Source of the DNA: Escherichia coli
GTDB taxonomy: Bacteria; Pseudomonadota; Gammaproteobacteria; Enterobacterales; Enterobacteriaceae
DNA: 64,000 nt
Assembly (NCBI GenBank): GCA_005400705.1
Contig: GCA_005400705.1_4079.1
Reading direction: 5' to 3' (one strand)
Shown: positions 43,989-54,976 of the stretch, in pieces
How positions within the stretch are numbered: position 1 is the stretch's first letter
Layout of the letters: each line of letters begins with the position of its first letter
Notes under the pieces: model-generated
Database searches by the model: none
What the model saw: the letters and a program-made list of their open reading frames with translations, nothing else
Told to the model about the DNA's origin: nothing
Made by a program: the position numbers and the translations under genes

Positions 43989-44180
43989 ATGTTGATTTAT
44001 CAAAGTGAAAATATTCGTGTTATGCAGCATCCCTACTTACAAATCTTTGATGTGCAGCAGTATATGGAAGGTGATGACCCAAGAACCTATGGTCGTAAGT
44101 ATGATTACTTCACTGTAAAGCAGTGTAAAAATATTAACGAAGTACGACAATTAGTTCAAGAACTTCAAAACAAAGGTTGA
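43989..44180 (+). CDS. hypothetical protein
   Basis: ATG after AAGGA (track ORF 43935-44180). Confidence 0.45.
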   Translation: MLIYQSENIRVMQHPYLQIFDVQQYMEGDDPRTYGRKYDYFTVKQCKNINEVRQLVQELQNKG

Positions 44181-44198
44181 CTTCGGTCAGCCTTTTTT
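44175..44198 (+). terminator. terminator hairpin GGTTGAC-TTCG-GTCAGCC (repeat family) overlapping a -35 box
   Basis: 7 bp stem with UUCG loop and T6 run; TTGACT inside the stem is 18 nt upstream of TATAAT. Confidence 0.6.
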
Positions 44199-47415: not shown

Positions 47416-47440
47416 GGGTTGACTAAGGTCAGCCCTTTGT
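47416..47440 (+). terminator. terminator hairpin (GGTTGAC repeat family variant)
   Basis: GGGTTGAC-TAAG-GTCAGCCC followed by TTTGTTG. Confidence 0.5.
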
Positions 47441-47599: not shown

Positions 47600-47624
47600 G
47601 GTTGACTTCGGTCAGCCTTTTCTT
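47600..47624 (+). terminator. terminator hairpin GGTTGAC-TTCG-GTCAGCC (repeat family)
   Basis: Identical stem-loop to 44175, followed by TTTTCTTT. Confidence 0.6.
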
Positions 47625-47654: not shown

Positions 47655-48932
47655 ATGAAATCTATGGAGAGAAATCAAATGCCAAGTAATTTTACTGATA
47701 AAAATGGTGGTAACATGGCTGGTCACTCTGATAAATGGAGTGAACGCAACCGCCGTCCAAATAGTTATCAAGCAGGTCAAGGTTCACGTGGGTCACGTAA
47801 TCAAGGAACTGGTCTAGCTGGTAAAGCAAACGCAGAAGCAGGTGAAGTTAAGAGTACTGAGAACATGACTGAGCTAGAAAAGCTACGTTATGTTAATTCA
47901 TTGGGACTTCTTAATGCTACACAAAAACAACGTCTAGCTGATATGGAACGTGAAGAAAAAGAAAAATCTGCTCCTGCTAAAGAAGAACCAAAACAAGAAG
48001 CACCAAAGGCGGTTAACCCTGTCAAAGAACTGTCTGATAAGTTAGGTAAGATTTTTGCTAATAAACCACAACTTATCCAAGGTATTGTGAAAGAATTGCA
48101 ATCTGTACCTAAAGAAGAATTAAAAGTCAAAGCACAAGCTGTACTTGATGCAATGAGTGGAAATACCAGTACTGAACCAACTGAAGTATTCAGTACTATA
48201 ATGCGTGCACTTGAAGGTACGCAACAAGGTGATGTGCCTGCACAAGAGGAAGTAAGTCTTGAAAGCGTACTTAAAACATTTGATAGTATTGGTAAAGAAG
48301 ACCGTGCTAATGCTCAACAAGTTAAGAATGTACTAGCTAAGTTAGAAAACCGTCTGGAAGGTAAAGACGATAAGATTAAATTAGTATCTGATGCAGTTAA
48401 CGATGCACTTAAATCTTACGTACAAGGTGAAAAGAGTCGTTTTGTAACTGCAATGGATGCTGCATTCAATACTATGAAAAAGTATGAAGCTGATCACGGT
48501 GAGAAGGTTACACGAGATGGTTATCTGATGCGTGATGATGAAGAAGGTGCAGTAGAACAGAACGATGTTCATTCAGACGAAGAAATTGATGACATGGAAG
48601 CTGAACTGTCACAAGACCGCCAAATGACTGAAAAATCCCATAACGAACTACAGAAATTAATGCAATGGGTTGCAGATGTTGGTGAAAAAGCTGGTGCTGA
48701 TAAGAAGAGTATAAACCGAAATCTTAGTTGGATTAAAGATAAAGTTGGTAACAACGCTCGTAAACTACAAAAAGCGTGGACTGATGTAGTGAATGGTGCT
48801 GTTGACATTGATGTTGAATCCGGTGAGGCATATGATTATGCATTGACTACACTTGATGACTCTTTCCGTGATTACGAAAATGGAAATGTAACTCCTTGGG
48901 AAAAGGACATCATGAGCAAATACGGTAAATGA
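47655..48932 (+). CDS. large hydrophilic protein (425 aa), hypothetical
   Basis: Gly/Ser/Asn-rich N-terminus, charged helical remainder; contains YVNSLGLLNATQ; exact start among three nearby ATGs uncertain. Confidence 0.55.
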   Translation: MKSMERNQMPSNFTDKNGGNMAGHSDKWSERNRRPNSYQAGQGSRGSRNQGTGLAGKANAEAGEVKSTENMTELEKLRYVNSLGLLNATQKQRLADMEREEKEKSAPAKEEPKQEAPKAVNPVKELSDKLGKIFANKPQLIQGIVKELQSVPKEELKVKAQAVLDAMSGNTSTEPTEVFSTIMRALEGTQQGDVPAQEEVSLESVLKTFDSIGKEDRANAQQVKNVLAKLENRLEGKDDKIKLVSDAVNDALKSYVQGEKSRFVTAMDAAFNTMKKYEADHGEKVTRDGYLMRDDEEGAVEQNDVHSDEEIDDMEAELSQDRQMTEKSHNELQKLMQWVADVGEKAGADKKSINRNLSWIKDKVGNNARKLQKAWTDVVNGAVDIDVESGEAYDYALTTLDDSFRDYENGNVTPWEKDIMSKYGK

Positions 48933-48942
48933 TAAAACAAAA

Positions 48943-48967
48943 GGTTGACTTCGGTCAGCCTTTTTTT
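48943..48967 (+). terminator. terminator hairpin GGTTGAC-TTCG-GTCAGCC (repeat family)
   Basis: Stem-loop followed by a T7 run. Confidence 0.6.
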
Positions 48968-49259: not shown

Positions 49260-49589
49260 GTGGCAATGTGTAATGACATTGAAAGTACTAAAAAAATTTA
49301 TTATAATAATGAAATAAATTATCGTTTTCATAATTTAACCACAAATAAAAGTTTACTATTTTACAATTGTAAAGAAGTAAAACTCCCACCAGACAATAGC
49401 TGTACTCCAACTAATCAACCCCCAGCACAATGTAATACTCCCTCTGAACCTGATAAAAATAAAAAAGACAAAGATAAAGATAAAAAAGAAGACAAAAAAC
49501 CTTTAAAAGATAAAAAGAAAGATAAAAAACCTAATCCGTTTAAAAATAATAAACCAGCACAACCCGATATGACGTGTAAAATAAAATAA
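49260..49589 (+). CDS. hypothetical protein with K/D-rich low-complexity tail
   Basis: GTG start; Cys-containing N-part then KDKDKDKKEDKKPLKDKKKDKK. Confidence 0.4.
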   Translation: MAMCNDIESTKKIYYNNEINYRFHNLTTNKSLLFYNCKEVKLPPDNSCTPTNQPPAQCNTPSEPDKNKKDKDKDKKEDKKPLKDKKKDKKPNPFKNNKPAQPDMTCKIK

Positions 49590-49598
49590 GGATATAAA

Positions 49599-50018
49599 AT
49601 GAAAAAGATTTTTTTAAGTATTATTTTAGTACTTTTTAGTTTTAATGTATATGCAGCAGATGCTAAACAGGTTGCTAATACAGTAAAAGATGTTATAGTA
49701 GACAATGCTCCTACCTTAGAGGAAATTGGGGTAAAAACTTGTGATATTGTAATATATAATTTAGTTAATGATGAACGAGTTATGTTGAATACGTATGAAC
49801 AAGTAGTCCCATTGGTTGAATCTGGTGCTGCTTTTAGCTTTACATATAAAGTTAAATTAACAGGAGGGGTTGAAGTTAATCTTGACATTGATACCGCTTC
49901 AGTACTAAAAGATAAACTAGGATATGTGTTCAATCGTATTCGTGAAGAAGGTCATCTTAAGTATGTTTATGAAAGTAAAATACTAAAACGTGCAATAGTT
50001 ATAGAAAACTGTAAATGA
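49599..50018 (+). CDS. secreted protein (signal peptide)
   Basis: SD AAGGA; MKKIFLSIILVLFSFNVYA. Confidence 0.55.
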   Translation: MKKIFLSIILVLFSFNVYAADAKQVANTVKDVIVDNAPTLEEIGVKTCDIVIYNLVNDERVMLNTYEQVVPLVESGAAFSFTYKVKLTGGVEVNLDIDTASVLKDKLGYVFNRIREEGHLKYVYESKILKRAIVIENCK

Positions 50019-50027
50019 TAATAAAAG

Positions 50028-50051
50028 GGTTGACTTCGGTCAGCCTTTTTT
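50028..50051 (+). terminator. terminator hairpin GGTTGAC-TTCG-GTCAGCC (repeat family)
   Basis: Stem-loop followed by a T6 run, then -10-like TATGAT. Confidence 0.6.
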
Positions 50052-50087
50052 GTTATGATGTTGATATTAACTACAGAGGATAAAGTA

Positions 50088-50729
50088 ATGACTAAGCAAG
50101 AAATATTCAAAACTTTAATTGACATTTTGCGTCCATCAAAAACTCGTTGTGCGATGGAGTTTGATATTCCTTATGCTGAACGCGTAATCTTTCCACAAGT
50201 TAAAGCTGCTGGACTTACTTTGCTTGGAATGGGGATGTACTCTGTAGTAGTTGAACATAAAAACTATCCTGGGCGTGCATTTAAAGTAACCACTTCACGC
50301 TGGGATGGTTTTCGTGCTTATGCAATGTACTGCATTGAAAACGCAGGAACCAAGTTTCTTCCAGTGATCTACAGTGCAAACGAACAAGGAAACTTTGGAT
50401 GGTATGAGATGGACAAGTACTATCCTATAATTAAACAAAAAAATAATTATGATGACTTTGTTAGTACTAAAATTGGAGATTTATATTCTTATGCACATGC
50501 TGGTCAGTATGCTACTTCAGTGAATGATATGCGTGGAAATTCTGAAGAGATTGCTATTGCGACGGTCGCTGCTAACATCATGAAAGAGTTTCACGGGTGT
50601 TTTGTACCAGACATTCATTCCAGTAATGTCATGATGGATAAAGATGGCAATGTATTCATTACTGATCCTCTTTCGTGTGATGTACGTAGAGAAATACCAG
50701 TTACTGAAGAAGATCCAGTTTTTTATTGA
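50088..50729 (+). CDS. protein-kinase-like (phosphotransferase fold) protein
   Basis: ATG after AGAGGA (track ORF 50055-50729); catalytic-loop-like FVPDIHSSNVMMDKDGNVFITDP compares with aminoglycoside-phosphotransferase HGDLxxxNxx...DGxxxxIDL. Confidence 0.45.
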   Translation: MTKQEIFKTLIDILRPSKTRCAMEFDIPYAERVIFPQVKAAGLTLLGMGMYSVVVEHKNYPGRAFKVTTSRWDGFRAYAMYCIENAGTKFLPVIYSANEQGNFGWYEMDKYYPIIKQKNNYDDFVSTKIGDLYSYAHAGQYATSVNDMRGNSEEIAIATVAANIMKEFHGCFVPDIHSSNVMMDKDGNVFITDPLSCDVRREIPVTEEDPVFY

Positions 50730-50791
50730 CAGAACTGATGTAATGAGGTATTCTTAATAAACCATTAAAAAGTGCGGTAAAGGATAAAATC

Positions 50792-51073
50792 ATGCGTTCA
50801 TTTGAAAACTTAATAGGTAAGAATCTTTTATCTGAAATTGATGCAGACGTTAAAGAATTATCCAAATCAAAAAGTTACATTCATTTGGATGAACTATTTG
50901 TTAAGTACGGTGAGATTGGTTTTAAGTCATTATTTGTTTTTACTATGAAAGTACATAGTTTAAAGTACTTCGATTTGAGTGCTAAAGATGGTGAACCGAA
51001 TCTATATTACATGTATTACCTTAAGAACAAAGATGAAGCTAATACATTACTCTCTGAATATATATTGGGGTAA
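50792..51073 (+). CDS. hypothetical protein
   Basis: SD AAAGGA. Confidence 0.5.
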   Translation: MRSFENLIGKNLLSEIDADVKELSKSKSYIHLDELFVKYGEIGFKSLFVFTMKVHSLKYFDLSAKDGEPNLYYMYYLKNKDEANTLLSEYILG

Positions 51074-51075
51074 AA

Positions 51076-51414
51076 ATGGAACAATATTTTGAATTAATAA
51101 ACAAAGTATCATTTTATGTAGTATCTTTGGTTTGGGTGTATTATATGTTTTGCTACATTATTGCATTCTTCCGATACACTACTTTATATGAACGTATCTA
51201 CTATGATGCCCCAATTTCATTCTTGATGTTTTGTGCATGTACGTGGGGAATATTAGAAGTACTGATATGTGGGTATAGTACTGATGAATTAAATCTGGTA
51301 TCGGTGTTGACTGGGTTTTCATTTGTTGTTATGATAGCTGCCGTTCCAGTATGGTTGTTCTTTGGACTAGTTCATCGCATTGATATATGGCGTTCTAATA
51401 TCCCTGAAAAGTAA
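51076..51414 (+). CDS. small multi-TM protein, array A member 1
   Basis: About 112 aa, 3-4 TM segments, FFRYTTLYERIYYDAPI after TM1, C-terminal RSNIPEK. Confidence 0.55.
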   Translation: MEQYFELINKVSFYVVSLVWVYYMFCYIIAFFRYTTLYERIYYDAPISFLMFCACTWGILEVLICGYSTDELNLVSVLTGFSFVVMIAAVPVWLFFGLVHRIDIWRSNIPEK

Positions 51415-51423
51415 GGATTGGTA

Positions 51424-51765
51424 ATGATTTATTACACTAACATGTTTGCCTATGCTGTTGCTTGCATTTACATTGTTTACTTCTTATTCGGTGGAGTACT
51501 GTGCTTCTTTAAGTACAAAACGTTGTTCAACCGAATGTACCCAAATCATCCAATTGTAGTTGTACTTTTGATTCTTTCAGTTTCTCAAATAATCGTTGAA
51601 ACTACAATGGGTATCAGTAGTGTACATTATAGTTTTGGTACTATAGTAATTATTACTATGCTTATTGCATACATTTTAGTACTTGGATATGGTATCTTTG
51701 GTAATATTGGTATGAAAATGTATCATCGAATTAAAACATTACGTGATAATCTACCGGAGCGTTGA
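51424..51765 (+). CDS. small multi-TM protein, array A member 2
   Basis: ATG after AAGGA (track ORF begins at a TTG at 51418); FFKYKTLFNRMYPNHPI; C-terminal LRDNLPER. Confidence 0.55.
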   Translation: MIYYTNMFAYAVACIYIVYFLFGGVLCFFKYKTLFNRMYPNHPIVVVLLILSVSQIIVETTMGISSVHYSFGTIVIITMLIAYILVLGYGIFGNIGMKMYHRIKTLRDNLPER

Positions 51766-51766
51766 T

Positions 51767-52111
51767 ATGTATAATTTGAACCTAATCTCATATATTATAA
51801 CAACACTGTTTACATTCTATGCCTTTGTTGGTATAATCCTACTGTACTTTAAATTTTATAAAGTGTTTAACCGTTTCTATCCTTCAATGGAGAATGAGTT
51901 TTTCTTTGTGTTGTACGTATGTTACACATTCATGGCTACATGTTTCACTGTAGTCGATGGTGTCATCGGCATTAAAACTGCTGCACCAAATGGTAGTACG
52001 CTGGTTGCATTTATTCTTACCGGATTCCTTGCAACTTATATTGCCTTCATTGCAACATGGTCAGTGGTTGAATTTCTCTTGCGACTACGAAAGAATATGC
52101 CGAATCGATAG
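51767..52111 (+). CDS. small multi-TM protein, array A member 3
   Basis: ATG after GGAG (track ORF 51743-52111); YFKFYKVFNRFYPSMEN; C-terminal LRKNMPNR. Confidence 0.55.
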   Translation: MYNLNLISYIITTLFTFYAFVGIILLYFKFYKVFNRFYPSMENEFFFVLYVCYTFMATCFTVVDGVIGIKTAAPNGSTLVAFILTGFLATYIAFIATWSVVEFLLRLRKNMPNR

Positions 52112-54952: not shown

Positions 54953-54976
54953 GGGTTGACTTAGGTCGGCCCTTTT
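54953..54976 (+). terminator. terminator hairpin (GGTTGAC repeat family variant)
   Basis: GGGTTGAC-TTAG-GTCGGCCC followed by TTTT, then -10-like TATTAT. Confidence 0.55.

Follow-up and report, generated by a model that had tools for sequence, protein, structure and literature searches.

What kind of kinase, if any, is encoded at positions 50088–50729 of a 64,000-nucleotide stretch of an Escherichia coli assembly (GCA_005400705.1, contig GCA_005400705.1_4079.1; the whole stretch is hereafter the window), and what would such an enzyme do during infection? The DNA around the gene (49500–51500) is 98.3–98.9% identical by megablast to the ~350 kb Asteriusvirus jumbo coliphages slurp01, SP27, phAPEC6, PBECO4, 121Q, G17, and Sharanji. 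An earlier note, made from the sequence alone, had called the product kinase-like from a D-x4-N…D arrangement in its C-terminal part. We found that the 213-residue open reading frame is real, that its product is homologous to the T7 kinase gp0.7 (T7K), that its catalytic residues are conserved, and that a kinase fold is predicted for it, all of which supports that call. We conclude that the gene product is probably a catalytically competent protein kinase, stand-alone and of the T7 gp0.7 family, that modifies proteins of the infected cell. The gene is already known, being annotated in related phages and cited in the literature, and our result is mainly a confirmation that it was correctly recognized; its practical yield is two corrections, to a RefSeq name that overstates the gene's functions and to several records that start it 33 nucleotides too far upstream.

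Family membership, catalytic residues, and fold

Homology places the protein. It matched PHROG 15752 over its full length (residues 1–213, E = 1.5e-90) and PHROG 2828, the T7-kinase family, at E = 2.6e-17; T7 gp0.7 itself (NC_001604 2021–3100; UniProt P00513) matched PHROG 2828 at 1.6e-169 and PHROG 15752 at 1.7e-46. The PHROG 15752 profile covers residues 1–213 of the window protein and 6–222 of T7K, and BLASTP aligned window residues 41–210 with T7K 68–230 (26% identity, E = 3e-9). By sequence, the protein belongs to the T7K kinase-domain family (PHROG 2828/15752; CDD PHA00451), and its homologues carry the precomputed Pfam assignment PF27024. A tblastn search of 50,697 phage records gave matches in 778 of them, 23 above 90% identity (Asteriusvirus), 5 at 60–80%, and 750 below 60%; the records sampled from the last group were nearly all ~40-kb T7-like phages, mostly annotated as gp0.7, protein kinase, or serine/threonine kinase. 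When a profile of 21 homologues was searched against 1.84 billion proteins, 1477 clusters (50% identity representatives) were retrieved at E ≤ 1e-3 and 198 at E ≤ 1e-10, with lengths of 157–1343 amino acids among the 150 matches listed. Judged from these sequences, a kinase-only format of ~200–240 amino acids is common in the T7K-type family.

The D-x4-N…D pattern is present in 21 of the window's 267 open reading frames (stop-to-stop, at least 60 amino acids) and therefore proves nothing alone; homology gives it its meaning. The peptide that the earlier note had read as the catalytic and metal-binding loops, FVPDIHSSNVMMDKDGNVFITDP, occupies residues 172–194 (window 50601–50669). In an alignment of 21 close homologues (alignment A1), G47, G49, Y51, K66, D73, E107, D175, H177, N180, D193, and P194 are invariant in all 21. 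In a wider alignment that adds T7K, proteins of the T7 type, and further stand-alone forms, G49, K66, D73, P92, D175, H177, N180, M182, T192, and D193 remain invariant, and P194 is conserved in at least 90%. The protein thus carries the catalytic constellation of the family, namely a glycine-rich loop, a β3 lysine, D-x-H-x-x-N, and, at the DFG position, I-T-D-P. Such invariance speaks for an active enzyme, not a decayed pseudokinase.

We then considered the fold in an AlphaFold2 model built with the 21-sequence alignment (mean predicted local distance difference test score, pLDDT, 91.8; predicted template-modeling score 0.87). Behind three N-terminal helices (Table 1), the model has strands β1–β3 at residues 44–48, 52–56, and 63–68, with the glycine-rich loop between β1 and β2 and Lys66 in β3, a helix at the αC position (74–84), β4–β5 and a small hairpin (115–124), and helices at the αD (127–139) and αE (152–168) positions. 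After αE come the D175–N180 loop, two short strands, D193-P-L, and a tail modeled with lower confidence. Kinase topology is seen in the N-lobe, hinge, catalytic loop, and metal-binding loop, and an activation segment with APE and helices αF–αI (subdomains VIII–XI) are missing; the chain ends 20 residues beyond Asp193, which binds the metal, so there is no room for them. A Foldseek search of BFVD aligned the whole domain with Autographiviridae "protein kinase" models (TMq 0.71–0.77, E 1e-15 to 1e-13, ~200–224 columns), that is, with the kinases of T7-like phages. The kinase fold, whose absence from a predicted structure the earlier note had named as the outcome that would overturn its call, is thus present in the model, in truncated form.

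Two variants of the family were observed alongside. In a subclade of 226–237 amino acids (P0015, P0017–P0027), ~20 residues are inserted between αD and αE (A1 columns ~150–175), where the window protein has a short, lower-confidence loop; the insertion is basic in most of the subclade, e.g., LKNNMNTRGMRKPKRDKYL, and might serve to bind nucleic acid or a partner. Metagenomic proteins of 776–1343 amino acids, namely P0036 (1021), P0037 (1343), P0039, P0040, P0057, P0059, and P0085, have a T7K-like kinase domain in mid-protein, an apparently undescribed kind of T7K-family architecture; some long proteins of this kind show several matched stretches, and a Pfam scan of those of 572–1343 amino acids found no informative domains.

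Predicted activity and competing explanations

From homology, fold, and conserved residues we infer the following mechanism. Mg-ATP would be bound through the G47-x-G49 loop, Lys66, Asn180, and Asp193, between the β-sheet lobe and the D175/N180/D193 loops, and Asp175 would act as catalytic base in the transfer of phosphate to Ser/Thr, possibly Tyr, of infected-cell proteins. As only the N-terminal helices, N-lobe, and catalytic core are present, the active site is expected to be open and weakly selective like that of T7K; that no substrate-binding lobe is present agrees with the motif-less promiscuity reported for T7K and four Autographiviridae homologues (Bas64, Bas65, Bas66, and Bas68), all of them hyperpromiscuous (PMC13645617). 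Lacking the C-terminal shut-off/DNA-binding (SO) domain of T7K, the enzyme would have neither T7K-type DNA tethering nor kinase-independent transcription shut-off. Without DNA tethering, it should not share the bias of T7K toward nucleic-acid-binding proteins. Its role is most likely the modification of host proteins in infection, for host takeover and/or anti-defense, as the Sharanji authors had already proposed (PMC11895373).

Ser196, if used, may permit quick self-inactivation. It aligns by BLASTP with T7K Ser216, a reported inhibitory autophosphorylation site said to be "conserved in all variants" (PMC13645617). Of 21 jumbophage-type homologues (P0002–P0027 set), however, only 2 have Ser at this position (window 50673–50675), whereas 14 have Ala and 5 have Gly. 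Ala is found in P0010, a protein of the Munch type with 99.1% identity to that of Munch (L006 3001–3642), and the 19 Ala or Gly residues, Munch included, contradict the published statement. The tail that follows is acidic, REIPVTEEDPVFY, and conserved in the clade: residue 206 is Thr or Ser in 17 of the 21, D209-P210 is kept in 17–18, and in the BLASTP alignment Thr206 sits one position from Ser227, a site of T7K autophosphorylation. Speculatively, this conserved acidic tail is an autophosphorylation or docking element. A bolder version of the kinase reading, which we hold only tentatively, is that the protein is an "untethered" T7K: a minimal 213-residue kinase, hyperpromiscuous without a DNA-binding domain, in which self-limitation or targeting would work differently, through the acidic tail and a lineage-specific Ser196. 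If so, it would be a broad anti-defense tool of jumbo phages with a substrate bias unlike that of T7.

Several observations weigh against a catalytically competent, self-limiting, host-transcribed kinase. A copy of Pfam-A lacking the PF27024 model gave no family at E ≤ 10, and NCBIfam gave no usable or significant match. A search of PDB sequences with the single protein or with the family profile A3 gave only matches of E ~0.5–1 to catalytic loop–DFG regions, and so no member of the T7K-type family seems to have a solved structure. No αC glutamate is conserved in helix 74–84 (E84 is Glu in 12 of 21); invariant D73, at the start of that helix, is the sole obvious candidate partner of Lys66. Autoinhibition through Ser196 is uncertain because of the Ala or Gly in the 19 homologues, and promoter-like sites in the region (24, against 30 ± 5.5 in shuffles) show no excess.

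The alternative that survives best, and that we nonetheless think unlikely, is a kinase that is active but dedicated to a narrow target, for instance one phage or host protein, in place of a promiscuous takeover or anti-defense enzyme. The protein lacks the SO domain, which drives high-stoichiometry phosphorylation in T7; its clade-specific tail RREIPVTEEDP could be a docking or regulatory element; and phage kinases can have few targets, as the unrelated Doc kinase of P1 shows. But it has no substrate-recognition lobe, the tested T7K-family members (T7 and the four Bas phages above) are all hyperpromiscuous, and no neighboring partner gene is conserved across the Asteriusvirus, Munch, and Hallingskeid loci, where only the kinase is common to all.

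We consider it improbable that the protein is a small-molecule kinase (aminoglycoside phosphotransferase-like, or acting on a lipid, sugar, or nucleotide) instead of a protein kinase. The protein lacks the part with which canonical protein kinases bind their substrate, and the Foldseek matches in the PDB include the aminoglycoside phosphotransferases (APH) APH(3')-IIIa and APH(4)-Ia (E ~5e-5 to 1.6e-4, template-modeling score 0.35–0.38). These share the protein-kinase-like superfamily fold and match weakly, and the window protein has neither a sequence match to the APH family (Pfam PF01636) nor its C-terminal helical substrate-binding subdomain.

It is also very improbable that the protein carries out no phosphotransfer and serves as a pseudokinase or scaffold, binding nucleotide or a host protein, as the truncated C-lobe, the want of an evident conserved αC glutamate, and the lack of a significant match to solved kinases might suggest. 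Against it, the glycine-rich loop, K66, D175, N180, and D193 are invariant both in T7K, known from experiment to be active, and across more than 20 diverged homologues, and T7K has the same truncated kinase architecture and is hyperactive (PMC13645617).

Least credible of all is that the protein does everything that T7 gp0.7 does, as a kinase that also inhibits host transcription and regulates both RNase III and RNase E. A name to this effect is carried by RefSeq 121Q and PBECO4 and by the PHROG 15752 label ([quoted passage not shown]), but the SO domain responsible for shut-off in T7K has no counterpart here and phosphorylation of RNase III and RNase E is a T7-specific experimental result moved by name only. 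In the T7K homologue JSS1_004, full anti-Dnd activity takes both domains. The RefSeq/PHROG name is therefore over-transferred. A protein kinase confined to the kinase domain remains the reading we favor.

Gene start, upstream cassette, and neighborhood

Where the gene begins bears on its records. An alternative ATG at 50055, which would give 224 amino acids, is adopted in the 121Q, PBECO4, and Sharanji records, whereas a kinase coding sequence of 642 nucleotides is annotated in those of G17, phAPEC6, and Munch. The start at 50088 is better because GAGGA lies 7 nucleotides before it, because Met1 never varies in the alignment and the majority of homologues have exactly 213 amino acids, because of the 642-nucleotide records, and because ATG 50055 falls within a −10-like hexamer, right behind the T-run of the upstream hairpin. 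Accordingly, the coding sequence begins 33 nucleotides too far upstream in the 121Q (L001 3556–4230), PBECO4, and Sharanji (L003 1056–1730) records. The antisense strand of 50088–50729 holds no long open reading frame.

Directly upstream lies a stem-loop, GGTTGAC-TTCG-GTCAGCC, with a UUCG loop (RNA fold −16.2 kcal/mol, z = −6.0). A −35-like TTGACT (50030–50035) lies within the 5' arm of the stem, and a −10-like TATGAT (50054–50059) follows 18 nucleotides downstream; a promoter-like scan scored 10 of 12 matches, with TG. The window holds six copies of the core, GGTTGACTTCGGTCAGCC, every one on the + strand, versus 0.01 expected, and each copy is followed by a −10-like (TATAAT-like) box 17–18 nucleotides after the in-stem TTGACT, then by a Shine-Dalgarno sequence and an ATG. 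In the G17 record these hairpins are annotated only as (putative) terminators; the sequence suggests a combined intrinsic terminator and sigma-70, host-type promoter. Such a cassette suggests transcription by host RNA polymerase, at the level of consensus only. As to early expression, the sigma-70-like TTGACT-18-TATGAT upstream is a consensus match only, and the position in the genome is not comparable with that in T7. The repeated hairpin cassette brings to mind the "promoter-early stem-loop" cassettes of T4-type phages.

Table 1. Elements of the kinase locus in window coordinates.
Feature	Position	Strand	Basis
Kinase coding sequence, T7 gp0.7-type (T7K) protein kinase, kinase domain only	50088–50729	+	Stop-free; 213 amino acids plus stop
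Shine-Dalgarno GAGGA	50076–50080	+	Sequence; 7 nucleotides before ATG 50088
Hairpin and promoter-like element directly 5' of the kinase gene	50018–50059	+	Sequence; A-run, stem-loop, T-run
Cassette copies	44175–44192, 47417–47434, 47600–47617, 48943–48960, 50028–50045, 54954–54971	+	Repeat search
N-terminal three-helix extension, residues 1–40, common to T7K	50088–50207	+	Model helices 3–14, 17–25, 27–40
Gly-rich nucleotide-binding loop G47-M-G49-M-Y51-S52, between β1 and β2	50226–50243	+	Translation, conservation, model
Lys66 in β3 (FKV), predicted ATP-phosphate-binding lysine	50283–50285	+	Invariant in A1 and A3
Catalytic loop D175-I-H177-S-S-N180	50610–50627	+	Invariant D175/H177/N180; aligns with HRDxKxxN of PAK4, KSR1
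D193-P194-L195-S196, DFG-equivalent "DPV-like" motif and Ser aligned to T7K Ser216	50664–50675	+	BLASTP to T7K D213-P-V-S216
Short C-terminal tail, residues 197–213, clade-conserved RREIPVTEEDP, no shut-off/DNA-binding domain	50676–50726	+	Alignment A1; pLDDT ~70

Upstream of the kinase are a virion protein gene (47655–48932) and three small open reading frames. The virion gene, ~1.2 kb away among otherwise small unknown genes, belongs to the structural family phrog_20398; in phAPEC6 the orthologue, gp035c, carries the label "chromosome segregation protein", and mass spectrometry detected it in virions. As virion protein genes lie 1–3 kb upstream, packaging of the kinase itself was considered and rejected, the phAPEC6 mass spectrometry having detected gp035c and gp037c and not the kinase gp031c. 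Two frames in between have no PHROG match: 49260–49589 contains a strongly Lys/Asp-rich low-complexity stretch, KNKKDKDKDKKEDKKPLKDKKKDKKPNPFKNNK, and 49599–50018 has a signal-peptide-like start, MKKIFLSIILVLFSFNVYA. Downstream are small open reading frames of unknown function, among which 51076–51414, 51418–51765, and 51743–52111 are three tandem paralogues of ~112–122 amino acids, hydrophobic and membrane-like, all of phrog_19285.

The kinase genes of Munch and of Erwinia phage Hallingskeid likewise stand within long co-directional arrays of small unknown genes, with neighbors that are not conserved; a few Munch neighbors are homologous to window neighbors but rearranged. A hidden Markov model search of the 267 open reading frames found no second T7K-like gene in the window, nor was the "second kinase" of Sharanji (WNN14351.1) located there.

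Comparison with known kinases

Canonical Hanks-type Ser/Thr kinases (PknB 1mru, TTK 3dbq, PAK4) show no significant sequence similarity to the window protein, and the canonical Pkinase models (Pfam PF00069/PF07714) do not match it; compared with them it has an extra N-terminal three-helix extension and lacks the activation segment, APE, and αF–αI.

T7K is the closest characterized system, with homology over essentially the whole window protein through its kinase domain (residues 1–242). Both have N-terminal helices, the glycine-rich loop, the β3 lysine, D-x-H-x-x-N, and a D-P-hydrophobic motif replacing DFG, and both kinase cores end equally short, without αF–αI. In T7K the motif is DPV (213–215) and the kinase domain ends at 242 (PMC13645617); the window protein has DPL, in agreement with the report that this valine is less conserved among jumbophage homologues (PMC13645617). 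The chief difference is the 117-residue SO domain of T7K (243–359), wholly missing here: 146 residues follow the metal-binding Asp213 in T7K and 20 follow Asp193, and no segment of the window protein aligns with that basic, helical domain, so that the full-length T7 gp0.7 architecture is absent. Transcription shut-off by T7K resides in the SO domain (Gln243–Gly359), which binds DNA and acts independently of the kinase, and a T7 delta-SO phage retains ~31% of wild-type phosphopeptides (PMC13645617). A kinase-only enzyme of this family therefore works in vivo. The genomic setting differs as well, the window kinase belonging to a ~350-kb myovirus-type jumbo phage and T7K to the leading end of a 40-kb podovirus.

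JSS1_004, from phage JSS1, belongs to the same kinase family and has a shut-off domain, whereas the window protein corresponds to its kinase part only. JSS1_004's N-terminal kinase domain phosphorylates DndFGH on Ser/Thr/Tyr and so inactivates this defense, and full anti-Dnd antagonism requires both the kinase and shut-off domains (PMC12345140).

The nearest relatives are jumbophage proteins. The G17 homologue (98.1% identical) represents the same gene, from a sister isolate, and that of Munch (61–62% identical) has the same 213-residue architecture, with Ala in place of Ser196; others are 121Q gp205, phAPEC6 gp031c, and Sharanji gp144 (WNN14432.1), with neighbor genes that vary by lineage. 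The label "protein kinase" is given to the orthologues of 121Q, PBECO4, G17 (with CDD PHA00451), Munch, and others, and "Klebsiella phage K11 gp0.7; PKc_like" to that of phAPEC6; the Sharanji orthologue has been named a T7 kinase homologue (PMC11895373), and the G17 and Munch proteins have been placed in the T7K phylogeny, where their loss of the SO domain was noted (Fig. 5b of PMC13645617). The jumbophage form is a natural kinase-only variant of T7K, which bears on whether promiscuity is intrinsic to the minimal core and on the effect of losing DNA tethering.
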